64,000 bases of DNA, from contig CAVPNL010000001.1 in the NCBI GenBank assembly GCA_963706575.1, forward strand, positions 64,001 through 128,000, read 5' to 3'. Below the pieces are notes generated by a model. That model was not told the origin of the DNA and did not search any database. It saw only the letters and a list, made by a program, of their open reading frames with translations. This DNA is from an uncultured delta proteobacterium (lineage in GTDB: Bacteria > Desulfobacterota > Desulfobacteria > Desulfobacterales > JAHEIW01). Numbering within the stretch: position 1 is the first letter of the stretch; every line of letters starts with the position of its first letter. This document shows positions 2,651 to 14,095 of the stretch, in pieces. Position numbers and translations under genes: made by a program.

Positions 2651-2789
2651 ATTCACTGAAAAAGGAACGGGTAACGGGGGGATTCATCGGAGTCGATGAT
2701 GGTCCCCTTGCCCGGTGCTGGCAAGCTCTTGTTTCTTTCCGAAAACTCATCACCAGCAACTCATAACCCCAAAAAACAATGGAGATGGC

Positions 2790-5700
2790 ATGTCAAAAAA
2801 TCCGTTGGCACCAAAACGGTTTCGGAAAAATTTCGGTAAGATAAAACAAATCGTCGGAATCCCTGATCTTATCGGAATGCAGCGTGAATCGTTTCAACGG
2901 TTTTTGCAAATGGATGTACCGCCTGAAAAGCGCGAGGATATTGGTTTGCAGACCGTTTTTAAATCTGTTTTTCCGATCAAAGATTTTACCGGCAGCGCAT
3001 CCCTCGAATTCGTGTCCTACCGATTCGGGGAGGTAAAGCACAGTATTGAGGAATGCGTCCACCGCGGTATGACCTATGAGATACCGCTGCGACTTACGGT
3101 CAGACTGGTCGTCTATGAACTTGACGTTGAAACCGGAGTTTCTAACATCCGCGACATTAAGGAACAGGAAATTTATTTTGGTACGATACCCTTAATGACT
3201 GAAAAAGGTACCTTTATTATAAATGGAACCGAGCGGGTCGTGGTCAGTCAGCTCCACCGGTCTTCCGGTGTGTTTTTTGACCATGACAAGGGCAAATCCC
3301 ATTCAAGCGGAAAAATTATTTATAGCTCACGGATTATACCGGTGCGTGGCTCCTGGATTGATATGGAGGTTGATCCTAAGGATATTGTCCACATTCGTAT
3401 TGATCGGCGCCGCAAGTTTCCAGTCACCTTGCTGTTTAAGGCTTTCGGTTACACAACCGAGGATTTGTTGAGCTATTTTTATGAGACGGAAAAAATAATT
3501 GTAAAAGGCAAGCGTTATTTTAAGGAATTCAATGAGGCGTATCTTGGAGGCAAACGGGCCAGCAAAGAAGTGCGTGATCCTAAAAGCGGAGAAGTCATCG
3601 TAAAAAAGGGCCGGGTCTTTACCATGAAGGCCATTAAACGCCTTAAATCGATTAAGGCCAATTTAATTCCGATTAATGTCGAAGAGATTATGGGCCACGC
3701 TTTCGCCCAAAGCATCGTGGATCCAGATACTGGAGAAACGATCGTCAGTGTTGCTGAGCTCATCAATGAGGAAGTATTGACCAAACTCAGCGATGCCGGC
3801 ATTGATGAATTTGATTTGTTGTATGTCGATGTGGCCACCAACAGCGATTCAATCCGCAAGACGCTTTTGCTGGATAAGGTTGAAACCAAAGAAGAAGCCC
3901 TGATTGAGATATATCGCCGGCTCAGACCGGGAAATCCGGCTACGCCTGAGGTGGCTCAGGATTTTCTTGATAATTTGTTTTTCAGGTCAACCTATTACGA
4001 TCTTTCCGGTGTGGGGCGGCTCAAAATAAATCAACGCCTGGGTATCGGCAGTCAGATTAATTTAAACATCTTACGAAAAGAAGATATCATACTTACGGCT
4101 AAAGCACTGATTCAGCTGCGCGATATCCAGGGTGTGGTGGATGATATCGACCATCTGGGCAATCGCCGGGTTCGCGCGGTGGGTGAGCTGCTTGAAAATC
4201 AATACCGCATCGGGCTGGTCCGGATGGAACGCGCAATAAAAGAACGCATGAGCCTTCAGGAGGTTGATGCCCTCATGCCTCACGATCTGGTGAATCCCAA
4301 GCCCGTATCTGCAGTTGTAAAAGAATTTTTTGGCACCAGTCAGCTGTCTCAGTTTATGGATCAGACCAATCCGCTTTCCGAGACGACCCACAAGCGGCGG
4401 CTCAGCGCATTGGGGCCCGGAGGTCTTACACGCGAACGGGCAGGCTTTGAGGTGCGGGATGTCCATCCTTCCCATTACGGTCGCATCTGTCCCATCGAAA
4501 CCCCGGAAGGGCCCAATATCGGCCTGATTGTTTCGTTGAGCACCTATGCGCGTGTAAACGCCTATGGCTTTATTGAAACCCCTTACCGGGTGGTGGCAAA
4601 TGCCAAAGTCACCGATGAAGTCAAATTTCTGGATGCCTTTGAAGAAAAGGATCTCCCCATCGCCCAGGCCAATGCTAGCATTGATAACAAAGGCGCATAT
4701 GTCAATCCGCTGGTGACCTCTCGGGTTGCCGGGGAATTTATGATGGTCGAAAAAGAACACATCGACCTGATGGATATTTCACCGAATCAGTTGGTTAGCG
4801 TTTCGGCCTCCTTGATCCCGTTTTTGGAAAATGATGACGCCAACCGGGCATTGATGGGTTCCAACATGCAACGCCAGGCAGTGCCGTTGCTTATTAATAG
4901 CGCGCCGCTGGTGGGAACCGGTATCGAAGGGGTCGTCGCAAGAGATTCCGGCGTTGCTGTGGTTGCCAAACGGGATGCGGAAGTGGTCGATGTGGATGCT
5001 GCCCGGATTGTTTTAAAGCATCAACCGGCAGGCGTGCCTTCTGAAAAGGATGTCACCATTTATAATCTTTCCAAATTCATCCGTTCCAATCAAAACACCT
5101 GTTTTAACCATCGCCCGATTGTTCGCAAAGGCGATTTTGTAAAGGCCGGTGAAATCATTGCGGATGGTCCAGCAACGGATCAGGGTGAACTGGCCCTGGG
5201 AAAGAATGTCACCGTGGCCTTTATGCCCTGGGGTGGGTATAATTTCGAGGACTCAATTTTGGTAAGCGAAAGACTTGTGCGCGATGGTGTTTACACTTCG
5301 GTACATATAGAAGAATTTGAAGTCGTCGCCAGAGATACCAAGCTGGGAAAAGAAGAAATTACCCGTGATATCCCCAATGTGGGCGAAGAAGCTTTAAAAA
5401 ATTTAGACGAAAGCGGAATTATTCGTCTTGGCGCTGAAGTGCTGCAGGGCGACATACTGGTTGGCAAAATAACACCTAAAGGTGAAACACAGCTATCTCC
5501 TGAAGAAAAACTACTGCGTGCTATATTTGGCGAAAAAGCCGGCGACGTTAAAGACACCTCTTTGCGGGTGCCCCCCGGGGTTCAGGGGACAGTTATCGAT
5601 GCGAAAGTATTTTCAAGGCGCGGCATCGACAAGGATGACCGCACCCGCCTGATCGAAGATGAAGAAATTGCGTCCCTTGAAAAAGATCGTGATGATGAGC

Positions 5701-6905
5701 AGGCTGTGATTGAAGAAGTGGTTCGTGCGCAGCTGGGGGATCTGTTGATCGGTAAAAAAGCCATGGCCGACTTGAAAAAGGGAAAGAAGGTTTTAATCGA
5801 AAGTGGGACGAATATCAATCGGGAAAGCTTGGCAAACGTCCCCATGGCCCAGCTGGAGGGCCTGGTTTTGAAAGATCCCAAAATCAGCCAGCAAGTCCAT
5901 GAACTGCTTGAACGCTACCGGGATCAGCGCGAGCTGTGCCGGCTGGCGTTTGAACAGCAGGTCAGTCGTTACGAAAAGGGAGATGATCTACCGCCCGGTG
6001 TCATCAAAATGGTTAAAGTTTACGTAGCCATGAAACGCAAGCTGTCTGTTGGTGATAAAATGGCGGGTCGCCACGGAAACAAGGGGGTCGTATCCCGGAT
6101 TTTGCCCGTAGAGGATTTGCCGTATTTCGAAAACGGTTTGCCGGTGGACATGGTGCTCAACCCGCTGGGGGTTCCTTCGCGAATGAATGTCGGCCAGATA
6201 TTGGAAATTCATCTGGGCCGCGCCGCCAAGGGTCTCGGGGATCAGTTAAATGAACTGCTCGAAGAAGCAAAATTTAAGGACCTGCGCGAGAAAACAAAGA
6301 AGATTTTTACAATCCCGGCCCAGCGAAAATTGATTTCCGAAATGGATGAAAAGCAGCTTGTCGAATTTACGGACTTTTATAAAGACGGTGTTCATATGGC
6401 CACACCGGTTTTTGACGGTGCCAAAGAAGATGAAATCAAATCACTGCTGAAAGAAGCCGGGCTCGAGCAAACCGGTCAGGCAACACTCTTCGACGGCCGC
6501 AGCGGTGAGCCTTTTGACGACAAGGTCACCGTGGGCACCATGTACGTTATGAAACTGCATCATCTGGTGGATGACAAGATTCATGCCCGTTCGATCGGCC
6601 CGTATTCCCTGGTGACCCAGCAACCGTTAGGCGGAAAGGCACAATTCGGCGGTCAGCGCCTGGGTGAAATGGAAGTCTGGGCCATGGAAGCATACGGAGC
6701 CGCGTATGCTCTGCAGGAATTTTTAACCGTGAAATCAGATGATATGGCCGGACGGACGCGCATGTATGAGAAGATTGTCAAGGGCCAAAACGTCTTGGAA
6801 CCCGGGATTCCCGAATCTTTTCGGGTTATGACCAAAGAATTGCAGGCTCTGGGGCTGGATATTGCACTATTAGATAAAGATGAACTGGAAGCCAAAAGCT
6901 CATAA
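2790..6905 (+). CDS. rpoB: DNA-directed RNA polymerase beta subunit
   Basis: [31 protein letters not shown] motifs; start at ATG 2790. Confidence 0.99.
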
Positions 6906-6978: not shown

Positions 6979-9900
6979 ATGGAAACTCTTTACGATTTTT
7001 TCGCAAAACCGACCGATCCAAGAAAGTATTTCGGTATTCAAATTGCACTGGCTGCGCCGGAACAAATTCGCAAGTGGTCACACGGCGAAATTAAAAAGCC
7101 GGAAACCATCAATTACCGAACCTTTAAGCCCGAACGCGATGGGCTGTTTTGTGCTAAAATTTTTGGGCCGACCAAAGATTATGAATGCAATTGCGGTAAA
7201 TACAAACGCATGAAACACCGGGGCGTCATTTGTGAAAAATGCGGCGTAGAAGTTATTCAATCCAAGGTGCGACGTGAACGCATGGCGCATATCGAGCTGG
7301 CTACCCCGGTCTCTCATATCTGGTTTCTAAAAAGCTTGCCGAGCAAGATCGGCAACCTGCTTGATCTGACCCTAAAAAACATGGAAAAGGTTTTGTATTT
7401 TGACAGCTATATCGTGGTGGATCCCAAAAACACGTCGCTGACAAAAGGTCAATTGCTTTCAGACGAAAAATACATGGAGGCATTGGAAGAATTCGGCTCC
7501 AAGTTCGATGCCGGCATCGGCGCCGAGGCGGTTCAGGCACTGCTGGAAAGCATTGACCTGGAAGAATTGTACATTGAACTCAAAGCGGACATTAAAGCGA
7601 CCGGATCGGTTGCCAAACGGCAGAAGCTATCCAAACGGCTGAAGATCGTCGATGCCTTTCGAAAATCCGGGGTTGATCCGACCTGGATGGTGATGAGTGT
7701 GATTCCGGTACTTCCTCCCGATCTTCGCCCGCTGGTACCTCTGGAAGGAGGCCGTTTTGCGACATCAGACCTCAATGATCTGTATCGCCGCGTGATTAAT
7801 CGTAACAATCGTCTCAAACGACTTATCGATCTCAAAGCACCGGACATTATTATACGCAATGAGAAACGGATGCTGCAGGAATCCGTCGACGTTCTTTTTG
7901 ACAATGGCCGCCACGGCCGGGTAATAACCGGGACCAATAAACGACCGTTGAAATCGCTGAGTGACACCTTGAAAGGCAAACAGGGTCGTTTTCGACAGAA
8001 CTTGCTGGGCAAACGCGTGGATTATTCCGGACGGACGGTAATCACCGTCGGGCCGGACTTAAGGCTGCATCAGTGTGGCTTGCCCAAAAAAATGGCGCTG
8101 GAACTGTTTAAACCGTTTGTTTATTTTCGACTGGAACAAAAGGGTTTCGTTTCGACCGTAAAAAGTGCAAAGAAAATGGTGGAACGCGAAATTCCGGAGG
8201 TATGGGATACGCTTGACGAGGTGGTAAAGGAATATCCGGTATTGTTGAACCGGGCGCCGACGCTGCATCGACTCGGTATTCAGGCCTTTGAGCCGATTTT
8301 GATCGAAGGTAAAGCCATTCAGTTGCATCCGCTGGTTTGTACGGCCTTCAACGCCGACTTTGACGGTGATCAGATGGCGGTTCACATACCGCTCTCGGTT
8401 GAATCACAGATCGAAGCCCGGGTGTTGATGCTATCCAGTAACAACATTTTGTCACCGGCCAACGGAAGTCCGATTATTGTACCGAGCCAGGATATTGTAC
8501 TGGGCACCTATTATATGACCCGGGGTGTTGCCGGTCGCCGAGGCGAAGGCAAAATCTTTGCGAATGTCGAAGAGGTCCAGGCTGCCTATGATGCCAAAGA
8601 AGTTGATCTGCACGCCAACATTACGGTTCGCATGCAAGGCAAACGCCATGAAACAACGGTTGGCAGAGTACTAATGTGGGAAATCATCCCCCAGGTCGAT
8701 ATTCTGGAACTGCGGCACATTCAGGTGGGCACGGAAGAAGAAGCGCTGGAGGTTTTTGATCAGATTAATAAGGGCAGACTGTTTACCGGTCTGGTCAATA
8801 AATATTCCCAGAGCCCGGATAAGGAAAATAAGGGGCTTATCGGAAAGCTCAGTTTCAACGAGTTTCGTAGTTTATTCGGCTGCCAGGAAGCCGATATTGA
8901 GGCCGTGTTTTCTCTTAAGGTCGGCGAATCCAGCAACGCCATATTTGCCGGTAACGCTTACCACTTTTTTGAAATTATATCCAAAAAGCCCGCCATCCCT
9001 TACGATATTGTCAATGCAGTGATGGATAAAAAAATGCTGCGTCAGCTGGTGGATTACGTCTACCGCAACCTGGGGCCCAAAGCCACCGTCATTCTTTCGG
9101 ATCGTCTCAAGAATATCGGGTACAAATATTCAACCCAGGGCGGCCTATCCATTGCGATTGACGATATGATAATTCCGGCGGCCAAATGGGATATCTTAAA
9201 TCAGGCTGAATCTCAGGTATCGGAAATCGGGCGGCAGTACACCGAAGGGCTGATTACCCAAGGGGAAAAGTATAATAAGATCGTCGATATCTGGGCCAAA
9301 GCCACTGATGATGTCGCCAATGAAATGATGGAGTCCATGAAACTGGAGCGCGCTGGAGAGAAAACCAGCAAAGCGGCAAAGAAAAAGAAGCAAAAATCGA
9401 GTCATGCTGAAAGTTTCAATCCCATTTTCATGATGGCTGACTCCGGCGCCAGGGGCAGCAAAGATCAGATGCGCCAGCTTGCCGGGATGCGGGGTCTGAT
9501 GGCCAAGCCGTCCGGCGAAATTATTGAAACGCCGATTAGCGCCAATTTCCGGGAAGGACTTTCGGTACTGCAATATTTCATCTCAACTCATGGCGCGCGT
9601 AAAGGATTGGCAGATACGGCTTTGAAAACCGCCAATTCCGGATATCTGACCCGCAGACTGGCTGATGTTGCGCAGGACTGTGTGGTTACCGAGCCTGACT
9701 GCGGAACCACGGCGGGGGTTGAAGTGGAACCGTTGATGGAGGGCGGTGAAATCATCCAGCGATTGGGTGAACGTATCTTGGGCCGGACCCTGGCGGAAGA
9801 TATCCATGATCCCTACACAGACGAGGTGGTGACGCGAGCCGGCGATCCCATTGATGAGGCCGCCGTCCAAAAAATTGAAGAAACCGGTGTCTCCAATGTC

Positions 9901-11379
9901 AAAATTCGTTCGGTGTTGACCTGTAAAGCCAAAACAGGGGTTTGCAGCAAATGTTATGGCCGCGATCTGGCGCACGGGCGCCCGGTGGAAATCGGTCAAG
10001 CGGTCGGGATTCTGGCCGCCCAGTCCATTGGCGAACCCGGCACCCAGCTGACCATGCGCACGTTTCATATCGGCGGTACCGCCAGCCGGCGGGTAGAGCA
10101 GGCGGACATTCGTTCCCGCACCGATGGAAAGATTAAGTATGTCGACCTCAATGTAGCCAAAAATTCCGAAGGCCAGCTGGTGGTCATGAACCGCCGGGGC
10201 GGCAAGTTTACCATTATCAGCAAGACGGGCCGTGAGCTGGAAACCTTTCCGGTCATTTACGGTGCCCATATTCAGATCAAAGACGGCGGGAAAGTCAAAG
10301 CAGGTGACTTGCTGGCCACCTGGGATCCATTTACCACCCCGATCATCTCCGAAGTCGATGGAAGCGTTAAATTCGGTGACATCGTTGCCGGACAGACCAT
10401 GCAGGAAAAGGTGGATCCGGTAACCGGCAAGTCGAGCCAGACCATCATTGAATCCAGAAGTGGTGATGAGCGTCCGCGGATATCCATCAAGGACGCCGAC
10501 GGCAAAACGGCCAAACTGCCCGCATCATCGGCTATGGCGCGCTATATTTTGCCGGTCAATGCCATTTTGCTTGTAGAGGAAACCGATGCGGTCAAGGCCG
10601 GTGATGTCGTTGCCAAACTGCCAAGGGCAACCACGAAAACCAAAGACATCACCGGCGGTTTGCCCCGAGTCGCCGAGCTTTTCGAAGTCCGGAAACCGAA
10701 GGAAGTGGCGGTGTTAAGTGAAATTGATGGATATGTTTCGATCTCAAAAAGCACCAAAAAAGGAAAACAGAGAGTGAGCATCACCCCTGTTGATGTCGGT
10801 GATAAAAAGGAATACCTGATTCCGCGGGGCAAACATATTAATGTGTACGAAGGCGATTATATTCGTGCCGGTGAGCCTTTGATCGGCGGTTCGGCGGTAC
10901 CCCAGGACATCTTAAGTATTAAAGGTGAGGTTGCACTGGCCCGTTATCTGGTTGATGAAGTACAAGAAGTTTACCGCCTGCAGGGTGTTCGTATCAATGA
11001 TAAGCATATCGAGGTGATTGTCCGGCAGATGATGCGGCGGGTGAAGGTCTTAACTGTCGGTGATACCGATTTTATCACCGAAGAACAGGTCGATCGCATC
11101 AAATTTGAAGAGGCCAATAAGGCCGTGATCGAAAAAGGCGGCAAGCCGGCTACGGCCGAGCCGCTGATTCTGGGAATCACCAAGGCATCTTTAAGTACGG
11201 ACAGTTTTATTTCGGCAGCTTCATTCCAGGAAACAACCAAAGTCCTTACGGATGCCAGTGTATCCGGAAAGGTTGACAGTTTGAGAGGGCTCAAAGAAAA
11301 CGTGATTATGGGTCGCCTCATCCCAGCCGGGACGGGTTTAAGAGCTTACGATGACGTTGCCGTCAAAATGGCGGATTAA
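6979..11379 (+). CDS. rpoC: DNA-directed RNA polymerase beta-prime subunit, with a ~100-aa parvulin-like insertion
   Basis: NADFDGD catalytic motif, zinc-binding Cys, trigger-loop insertion; extra domain at about aa 572-671. Confidence 0.99.
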
Positions 11380-11445: not shown

Positions 11446-11473
11446 TTGACAATCGTATGTTTCCTGTATAAAT
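11446..11473 (+). promoter_or_regulatory. Putative sigma70 promoter of the str operon
   Basis: TTGACA followed by TGTATAAAT upstream of rpsL; spacing slightly non-canonical. Confidence 0.5.
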
Positions 11474-11529
11474 ACGGTCATTTTACCAAGTCTAGAATCT
11501 TAGAAGAAAAAAAGGGTCGTCAGGAGATT

Positions 11530-11901
11530 ATGCCAACCATAAATCAACTCGTTCGTAAAGGCCGAAAGACAGCCAAAAGAAAAGTTACGACGCCGGCATT
11601 GAAGGGGGCACCCCAGAAGCGCGGTGTTTGCACCCGGGTGTATACATCAACCCCCAAAAAGCCCAATTCGGCCTTGCGGAAGGTGGCGCGTGTTAGATTG
11701 ACCACCGGGATTGAGGTCACTGCCTATATCCCCGGCATCGGCCATAACCTCCAGGAGCATTCGGTGGTTTTAGTGCGCGGGGGTCGGGTCAAGGACCTGC
11801 CTGGTGTTCGCTATCATATTGTTCGTGGCACCTTGGATACGCTTGGAGTTGAAGATCGCAAACAGAGCCGCTCCAAATATGGAGCCAAAAAGCCCAAATG
11901 A
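11530..11901 (+). CDS. rpsL: 30S ribosomal protein S12
   Basis: [12 protein letters not shown]...[10 protein letters not shown]...[10 protein letters not shown]. Confidence 0.99.
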
Positions 11902-12002
11902 TGATAGTTACTGGTTATTGGTTAATCGTTATTCGGTTAGTAAGGAAAAAAATCCTTATTTCTCCAATAACCAATAACGAATAACAATTTTCTGGAGAAT
12001 AA

Positions 12003-12473
12003 ATGCCTAGACGAAGAGAAGTGCCGGAGCGCGTCACTACCCCGGATTCAAAATATAACAGTGCACTGGTAGCCAAGTTTGTAAACTGTATTATGCGCGA
12101 TGGGAAAAAGAGTACCGCAGAAGCGACACTCTATAAGGCGCTCGATATCATGGGAGAAAAAACCAACGAACTTCCGCTGAAAATGTTTGAGCAGGCTGTG
12201 GATAATGTGCGCCCGTTAATAGAAGTAAAATCCCGACGCGTGGGAGGTTCAACGTATCAGGTCCCAACCGAAATACGACCATCCCGCAGAACCGCTTTAG
12301 GCATTCGATGGATTATTACCTATGCTCGCCAGCGGCCGGAAAAAGGTATGGCCAGTAAATTGGCTTCCGAGTTACTGGATGCAGCCAATAGAAGAGGCGC
12401 TTCCGTTAAGAAAAAGGAAGACACTCATAAAATGGCCGAAGCCAACAAGGCCTTTGCCCATTTTCGCTGGTAG
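12003..12473 (+). CDS. rpsG: 30S ribosomal protein S7
   Basis: MPRRR...[12 protein letters not shown]...[12 protein letters not shown]. Confidence 0.99.
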
Positions 12474-12574
12474 GCCAAAACCCAACTCACCACGGGCAAG
12501 TTGCATGGAAATGATATTCAATTGCGTTCGTCTGTGCGCGATGCCCATGCATGTTTAATTGGGAGGATGAAAAG

Positions 12575-13768
<1,194 letters not shown>

Positions 13769-13783
13769 CGGAAATATACGACA

Positions 13784-14095
13784 ATGATAACCAACACCAA
13801 GATAAGAATCAGACTCAAGGCTTACGACCATAAGTTGCTGGATCAGTCTGTATCCGATATCGTCGATACGGCAACAAAAACCGGTGCTAAAGTTGTTGGA
13901 CCGATACCGCTGCCTACGCGAATCAGTAAATATACGGTGCTGCGATCTCCACATATTGATAAAAAATCCCGTGAGCAGTTCGAAATTCGGACCCACAAGC
14001 GTCTCATGGATATCATGGAGCCCACCCAGCAGACAGTGGATGCCTTGATGAAATTAGACCTGTCACCGGGTGTCGATGTGGAGATTAAGCTATAG
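13784..14095 (+). CDS. rpsJ: 30S ribosomal protein S10
   Basis: [11 protein letters not shown]...GPIPLPT...SREQFE. Confidence 0.99.

Follow-up and report, generated by a model that had tools for sequence, protein, structure and literature searches.

The rpoC gene in the window analysed here, a stretch of 64,000 nucleotides (positions 64,001 to 128,000 of contig CAVPNL010000001.1, assembly GCA_963706575.1) from an uncultured delta proteobacterium of the order Desulfobacterales, encodes an RNA polymerase β' subunit with an additional internal segment of 98 residues. This segment models as a single domain with the parvulin fold, organised around a four-stranded antiparallel sheet. It is confined to one lineage, the order Desulfobacterales, within which it is inherited vertically and has been lost at least twice, once as a clean deletion. 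The insert is thus real, unusual in its fold and ordinary in kind, being a lineage-specific β' insertion. Judging from the residues found at its catalytic positions, the role of the domain is probably in binding and not in catalysis, and the explanation that we favour, by a modest measure of confidence, is that it forms an accessory, largely non-catalytic docking or structural module on the polymerase. The host gene, the insert and its two flanks are located as follows, in window coordinates.

6979..11379, + strand: rpoC, RNA polymerase β', 1466 residues, host of the insert (TIGR02386 rpoC, 1765.9 bits; Pfam RNA_pol_Rpb1 domains 1-5)
8419..8694, + strand: N-terminal flank, residues 481-572, a conserved β' block that aligns with Escherichia coli β' 481-585
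8695..8988, + strand: parvulin-fold insert, residues 573-670, 98 residues (PF00639 match, AlphaFold2 model and Foldseek)
8989..9258, + strand: C-terminal flank, residues 671-760, a conserved β' block starting PAIPYDIVN that aligns with residues 586-675 of solved β' chains

Translation of the 6979-11379 reading frame gives 1466 residues free of stops, and the insert lies in frame between two β' blocks that are contiguous in other bacteria, at around residues 585/586 of the E. coli protein. This was assessed by comparing residues 481-760 (280 residues) with all PDB chains using phmmer. Residues 481-572 align to E. coli 481-585 and the alignment resumes at residue 671 with chain residue 585/586 (the printed alignments being those of Xanthomonas and two other chains); the 98 insert residues are spanned by none among the 60 β' chains listed. 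The N-terminal flank is 60-77% identical in relatives that lack the insert. The initial annotation of this DNA had placed about 100 extra in-frame residues between blocks that are nearly contiguous in E. coli RpoC, and this description was accurate: both flanking strings are present, the PDB alignment puts the insertion point where it was claimed to be, residues 572-671 correspond exactly to nucleotides 8692-8991 and the sequence agrees with that quoted earlier.

The insert interrupts the Pfam domain RNA_pol_Rpb1_3 and, in an NCBIfam scan, the cyanobacterial γ profiles end and the β'' profile begins around it. The parvulin domain may face the pore, omega and secondary-channel side of the polymerase. 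We suggest this placement because Rpb1 domain 3 is interrupted and because the residues of guanosine tetraphosphate (ppGpp) site 1 in E. coli, K615, I619 and D622, fall 30-37 residues downstream of the insertion site; they look conserved, by eye, in the window RpoC. In PMC11515920, the small bacterial domain at the insertion site is named β'-bD4, the cyanobacterial subunit split falls inside bD4, and the middle of bD4 is one of seven lineage-specific β' insertion sites. In PMC10895346 the cyanobacterial split is put ahead of conserved region E.

An assembly chimera, or a mis-joined contig of a metagenome-derived genome, would offer a trivial explanation for such a segment, and the source assembly, with its 25 contigs and estimated contamination of 6.39%, lends that explanation some initial plausibility. 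It is refuted, and its probability practically nil, because complete genomes carry the insert and independent contigs bridge both junctions. The same insert occupies the same site in the complete single-contig genomes G047, G123 and G145 and in records CP070746 and CP070694. A check of the junctions against independent runs, as had been recommended, found the 5' junction bridged by two contigs (X2 records 13 and 14, 8553-8829) and the 3' junction by two more (X2 record 15, 8838-9026; X1 record 6, 8883-9021), with no joint or indel reported across four independent public runs. RNA run X15 yielded contigs only at 8400-8436 and 8483-8680, which neither show nor exclude expression of the insert.

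Sequence profiles and predicted fold agree in identifying the segment as parvulin-like, as the initial annotation had proposed. The Pfam Rotamase family PF00639, against which a hidden Markov model comparison had been advised, scores above its cut-off of 21.7 bits on the isolated insert (25.8 bits for the 98 residues, and 24.7 bits for a 127-residue piece that includes them). When 50 orthologous inserts were scanned singly, 45 matched the same family at E <= 0.01, the best at 1.1e-12. The PrsA models of NCBIfam match the insert down to E 2.8e-9, and parvulins make up 27 of the 28 PDB sequences found at E <= 1; among them, Bacillus PrsA (6vj6) matches at E 7e-7, and E. coli PpiC (Par10; 1jns) aligns across the whole insert at E 0.012. 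Searches for intein, Hint or homing-endonuclease families gave zero Pfam or NCBIfam matches at E <= 10 in either RpoC or the 127-residue piece. A SurA/PrsA-type chaperone was also considered as an identity and was rejected, RpoC having no SurA_N match whereas the free relatives have SurA_N.

The AlphaFold2 model of residues 560-685, based on a 50-sequence alignment, has a mean predicted local distance difference test (pLDDT) value of 76.8. Its elements follow one another as β-α-α-α-β-α-α-β-β, the parvulin order with one extra short helix. Foldseek with the insert model returned 81 PDB matches at E <= 0.001, and those listed are all of parvulin type, including PrsA, Par14, SurA, Pin1, Ess1 and PpiD; the best by template modelling (TM) score is 1zk6, with a TM score of 0.85 and a root mean square deviation of 2.2. 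In a larger model of 400 residues (residues 421-820, 66 sequences), the insert and both junctions have pLDDT values of 88-94 per 10-residue block, and there is no dip in confidence at either junction, the blocks covering model residues 141-260 all falling in that range. On these models the domain is probably mounted rigidly, its first and last strands side by side and without flexible linkers.

The distribution of the insert was traced in genomes and in protein sequence collections. A set of 151 genomes was sampled at class level, and all proved to be labelled as a single order, that of the window genome; at least 128 of them carry the insert, in reading frames of at least 906 residues. Among 41 relatives compared with the window, 37 carry the whole 127-residue piece in frames of at least 804 residues. 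Of 496 stretches found by a pattern scan across 185,579 species genomes, 471 were confirmed, and the best 80 that were kept all cover the insert. A profile made from the insert alone retrieved 134 proteins at E <= 1e-6, RpoC accounting for 115 of the 120 listed; it reached further than a word-indexed search with a single insert, which extended only to relatives of at least 68% identity. The insert-bearing records are named as Desulfobacterales, Desulfobacteraceae, Desulfosarcina, Desulfatibacillum, Desulfobacter postgatei, Desulfotignum, Desulfobacula and Desulfobacterium. Five insert-bearing contigs (L071, L077, L082, L095 and L115) come from metagenome-assembled genomes (MAGs) assigned to Xanthomonadales, Hyphomicrobiales, Gammaproteobacteria or Pseudomonadota; the likely explanation is mis-binning, or else a label that is broad or out of date.

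Outside the order, in a 201-genome sample of the phylum, the insert was not found in rpoC. The insert-like matches listed there lie in frames of 94-932 residues, of which the 932-residue frame is a SurA_N-Rotamase protein. Both flanks without the insert are seen in 86 of the 88 genomes from outside the order, the two lying 0-36 nt apart wherever both are listed, and the insert columns are empty (0 residues) in all ten outgroup fragments aligned. The survey of Desulfobacterota RpoC called for in the initial annotation accordingly places the insert in most of one order and does not see it in rpoC elsewhere in the phylum. Beyond the phylum, the evidence comes from the named profile matches, all of which belong to this group or are broadly labelled. 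A search with a 161-residue piece against 1.84 billion cluster representatives returned RpoC fragments and free parvulins only, and is uninformative on other phyla because insert-bearing full-length RpoC sequences are probably hidden under representatives that lack the insert.

Ten genomes of the order without an RpoC-embedded match were re-examined, G142 and G150 being left out. In four (G026, G039, G115 and G117) the rpoC piece was not found. One, G042, does have an insert at this site, 98 residues long but too diverged for the insert-only query. Its locus (L131, G042:C1) lies on a single contig of 2.1 Mb and its flanks form a long branch (0.76), so that this may be a reduced or fast-evolving genome. 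The insert is absent from G097, G152 and G174 (family f38), from G031 and from G063. The last of these is particularly informative. Its flanks are 91% identical to those of the insert-bearing G061, of the same genus, in which four of five genomes bear the insert, and its site (L136, G063:C14) reads DNI-KR, in which only the three opening and two closing residues of the G061 insert are left. G063 therefore represents a clean in-frame deletion of the parvulin domain. A further irregular case is G025 (C12:26889-27274), where the query aligns as two separate parts, residues 1-55 and residues 101-127, which lie in short open frames (236 and 187 residues); this rpoC may be frameshifted, broken or mis-assembled.

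In a tree built from flank columns only, the order forms one clade (support 98 by the Shimodaira-Hasegawa-like approximate likelihood ratio test, SH-aLRT), G063 is sister to G061 (99) and the f38 clade arises from among insert bearers. The branches starred in this tree force at least three changes, namely one gain and two losses. Distances between inserts track distances between flanks (Pearson 0.79, Spearman 0.67, 1275 pairs), as expected from vertical descent, which is therefore the mode of inheritance indicated.

Selection on the insert was measured in nine genomes of the window's genus, L003 being left out since its locus is shorter. Of 36 pairs, 23 had a finite dS, and over these the ratio of non-synonymous to synonymous substitution rates (dN/dS) has a median of 0.13 for the insert; it is 0.23-0.46 in the least saturated pairs. 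Corresponding values are 0.034 for the rest of the locus and 0.041 for the 100 residues on either side of the insert. The insert is under purifying selection, 3-4 times weaker than that on the rest of rpoC.

These data bear on the idea that the insert is a tolerated passenger in a permissive loop, with no ligand or role, kept because clean removal is rare. At least two losses without loss of rpoC, evolution 3-4 times faster than in the rest of the gene, an insert in G042 so diverged that the insert-only query missed it, and a site known both for insertion and for the cyanobacterial subunit split would all suit such a passenger. It sits poorly with a dN/dS well below 1, with retention in at least 128 of the 151 genomes of the order, with a length held to 92-106 residues (median 98) over 118 inserts and with the near-invariant surface-type residues E628 and S610, kept across families. 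We consider this explanation unlikely.

The 118 distinct inserts, of 130 compared, comprise the window's own, 49 chosen across the order and the 80 best database matches. The positions in the window insert on which a judgement of its chemistry depends are these.

8716..8718, + strand: His580, the first histidine of the active site, which matches a His in Par10 and PrsA
8812..8814, + strand: Ser612, within YSQS, at the position of the catalytic Cys of Par10 and Asp of PrsA in sequence alignments
8839..8877, + strand: the best-conserved stretch of the insert in the 118-insert comparison (I621, G622, L624, E628, F629 and F633)
8962..8970, + strand: His662, the second histidine of the active site, with Phe664; alignments match this site to GYH of PrsA and Par10

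The residues that define parvulin catalysis are known from the literature on Pin1 and Par14. The initial annotation had noted that both histidines, H580 and H662, are kept in the window, that the Cys/Asp site reads YSQS, with Ser, and that the GGDLG motif is degenerate, reading KGLIG; all of these features are present. Across the 118 inserts, position 580 is His in 94, Arg in 13, Gln in nine and Thr in two, and position 612 is Ser in 66, Ala in 20, Asp in 12, Gly in 11, Glu in four and other residues in five, Cys never occurring. Histidine occupies position 662 in 104, so that the first His is lost in 24 inserts and the second in 14. Both are gone in some families that retain the domain, as in the f22 rows (R/Q ... 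T/N/Y/C/D). The His-Asp-His set is complete in eight of the 118 distinct inserts and the catalytic set is incomplete in the remaining 110. The window insert itself does not have the complete set of two His plus Cys/Asp and Thr/Ser, having S612 and, at the Thr/Ser site five residues before the second His, A657.

Conservation is concentrated elsewhere. F664 is present in 117 inserts, as is G622, followed by E628 (113), F629 (109), F602 (107), S610 (106), F633 (104, with Tyr in a further 13) and L624 (101). By motif spacing, I621, F629 and F633 may be the counterparts of Leu122, Met130 and Phe134 in the proline pocket of Pin1, and we infer that the hydrophobic groove beside E628, the candidate surface with the strongest conservation, may be a binding site for some partner. 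The median net charge of the inserts is -7, a value that speaks against nucleic-acid binding.

An active domain would be a prolyl isomerase mounted on the polymerase, acting on bound NusG, Rho or sigma, on the polymerase itself or on nascent chains during coupled transcription and translation. It would parallel Pin1/Ess1 and their action on the Pol II tail, but from within the enzyme. Consistent with this are the two histidines, present in the window and in 91 of the 118 distinct inserts, the near invariance of the hydrophobic I621, F629 and F633, and the match to PF00639 above its cut-off. Difficult to reconcile with it are the occupation of the Cys/Asp site by Ser, Ala or Gly in 97 of 118 inserts, the rarity of a complete His-Asp-His set, the retention of the domain in whole families without both histidines and the degeneracy of GGDLG. 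Pin1 has Ser at the position equivalent to Phe81 of PpiC, which makes that position a weak point against catalysis here: it is always polar or Gly across the 118 inserts, and Asn in the window. For PpiC itself, PMC7353009 reports that the F81A mutant is inactive. The paper also names NusG, Rho, SuhB and RpoA as proteins that co-purify with E. coli PpiC, which offers a lead for partners but is not evidence here. An active isomerase is, in our estimation, improbable. A more far-reaching version, in which the Desulfobacterales polymerase would have its own prolyl isomerase or chaperone and the tethered parvulin, in lineages that keep both histidines, would drive a proline switch by catalysis, or trap it, within the polymerase or a transcription factor bound to it, is very doubtful; if true, a proline switch would couple transcription to a conformational timer as with Pin1/Ess1, but one that is built in.

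Docking is favoured over foldase activity because the catalytic set is incomplete in so large a share of the inserts and because the domain has been lost more than once. In the explanation that we favour, one parvulin domain entered a surface loop of β' in a single event early in the history of the Desulfobacterales, either in β'-bD4 or beside it and between the equivalents of E. coli residues 585 and 586, and has been inherited vertically since that insertion. Purifying selection holds the fold and the hydrophobic groove formed by I621, F629 and F633 beside the near-invariant E628, and the chemistry of prolyl isomerisation is not maintained. The module would act by binding some short peptide stretch in a partner protein, or by stabilising the local surface; any binding may resemble that of the inactive parvulin domains of SurA (P1) and PpiD.

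Several points weigh against this explanation or against the data behind it. No partner was found: omega, considered as a co-varying partner, is of ordinary size (70-85 residues) in four insert-less and two insert-bearing genomes and gives no signal. The groove residues may simply be residues of the fold core, and the losses, at least two in number, could equally be compatible with a domain that does little. Pin1 Cys113 mutants keep some activity, and since both histidines are found in most of the inserts compared, a weak isomerase is possible in most lineages. The 118 inserts are moreover a biased sample, ten coming from one genus and 80 being the best matches to the window sequence. The tree was a quick IQ-TREE search on 292 flank-only columns and 66 rows, with SH-aLRT as its only measure of support, and the insert-less G031 (f8) falls in an unsupported basal fork. 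Two further scans recognised the domain less well. A scan of the whole 1466-residue RpoC found only Rotamase_2 (PF13145), at 14.8 bits and E 0.052 against a cut-off of 27, and when the whole genome was searched with PF00639 in six frames at E <= 0.01, three free parvulins were found but the insert was not recovered.

The free parvulins of the window genome (G000) are three ordinary proteins, all of them with SurA_N plus Rotamase. Two, of 327 and 338 residues, were considered as possible donors of the insert, to which they are only 29% and 22% identical; own-genome paralogues were rejected because they are further from the insert than relatives in other classes. The closest of those relatives by pairwise BLASTP are L140 (G372:C37), with 36% identity over 95 residues (E 1e-16), and L142 (G299:C25), with 35% over 91 residues (E 4e-15). 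Both belong to other classes of the same phylum, have a SurA_N-Rotamase architecture and a length of 325-327 residues, and share a YS.SPD.E motif with the insert. They differ from it in being free-standing, with an N-terminal hydrophobic leader and a SurA_N domain, in having GG where the insert has one Gly and in lacking its 5-7 extra residues after the GxxG strand. L140 has Gln at the first His and Thr at the Asp site, the former suggesting a subfamily of degenerate envelope parvulins. From these likenesses the donor is likely to have been a degenerate chaperone-type parvulin from the SurA_N-parvulin family of the same phylum.

Comparison with known systems places the insert among the lineage-specific inserts of β', such as SI3/β'i6 of E. 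coli and β'i2 of Thermus. As with those, an in-frame domain occupies a surface loop between conserved blocks, is found in one lineage only, changes more quickly than the core and can be dispensed with in some members. The site, β'-bD4, is shared with insertion sites described in PMC11515920, where most β' inserts are reported to be HABAS and rarer variants to combine HABAS, BEAN and sLC. From inserts built of these folds (SBHM/HABAS, BEAN and sLC), the present one differs in having a parvulin fold and an origin in an enzyme/chaperone family.

Among parvulins, the P1 domain of SurA (2pv1, peptide-bound) and the PpiD domain (2kgj) have the same fold, with Foldseek E of about 1e-5. The parvulin domains of SurA P1 and PpiD are inactive and bind peptides; the insert resembles them in keeping the fold with an incomplete catalytic set. 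They differ in being periplasmic and paired with a SurA_N chaperone module, the insert having no SurA_N. Pin1 and Ess1, both among the fold matches, offer a parallel as parvulins linked to the largest subunit of a polymerase, eukaryotic RNA polymerase II, on whose C-terminal repeats they act. Each is a protein in its own right that combines a WW domain with an active site which is intact and recognises phospho-Ser/Thr-Pro, whereas the insert is covalently built in, has a degenerate active site and is accompanied by no repeat tail. E. coli PpiC is, like the insert, a single cytoplasmic parvulin domain, for which co-purification with transcription proteins is reported in PMC7353009. PpiC is active and has the catalytic Cys and F81, whereas the insert has Ser and Asn at those positions.

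The initial annotation did not recall the insert among described lineage-specific insertions, and this claim of novelty holds in part. Full-text searches found no paper describing a parvulin insert in RpoC, although they did not cover Lane & Darst 2010, which possibly lists the site. The main text of PMC11515920 has no mention of parvulin, peptidyl-prolyl isomerase (PPIase), rotamase or isomerase, and one of its supplements has none of Desulfo, parvulin, PPIase, rotamase or the one CATH code tried. Term searches of bioRxiv 10.1101/2021.06.06.447298 and of PMC8655204 (HelD) likewise revealed no such insert. Many of the RpoC entries concerned, for their part, already carry PF00639 or PF13145 in precomputed Pfam tables, so that the domain itself had been flagged. 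The insert can also mislead automatic annotation, as in P0247, a partial RpoC of 703 residues from a Desulfotignum MAG that is named 'peptidyl-prolyl cis-trans isomerase, partial', the insert being the probable cause.

Lineage-specific polymerase inserts are thought to be platforms for lineage-specific regulation, and the host order here dominates sulfate reduction in marine sediments. According to PMC11515920, the inserts described so far use very few folds, to which a parvulin insert would add one derived from an enzyme or chaperone. Nature has also provided controls, in the shape of the clean deletion in G063, the insert-less family f38 and lineages with and without the histidines, and the function of the insert is therefore testable by comparison.

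Elsewhere in RpoC, at 9349-9438 (residues 791-820), a Lys-rich stretch, KAAKKKKQK, precedes a conserved block. The 400-residue model gives the segment that holds this stretch a pLDDT below 50, a low score that the end of the fragment may also explain. The gene directly upstream of rpoC encodes the β subunit.

2715..6905, + strand: rpoB, RNA polymerase β, 1396 residues (open reading frame; Pfam RNA_pol_Rpb2 domains 1, 2, 3, 45, 6 and 7)

Downstream of rpoC, fusA (EF-G) is absent between rpsG and tuf, a place where many bacteria have it, and the gene order over window positions 11446-14095 is rpsL, rpsG, tuf and rpsJ.

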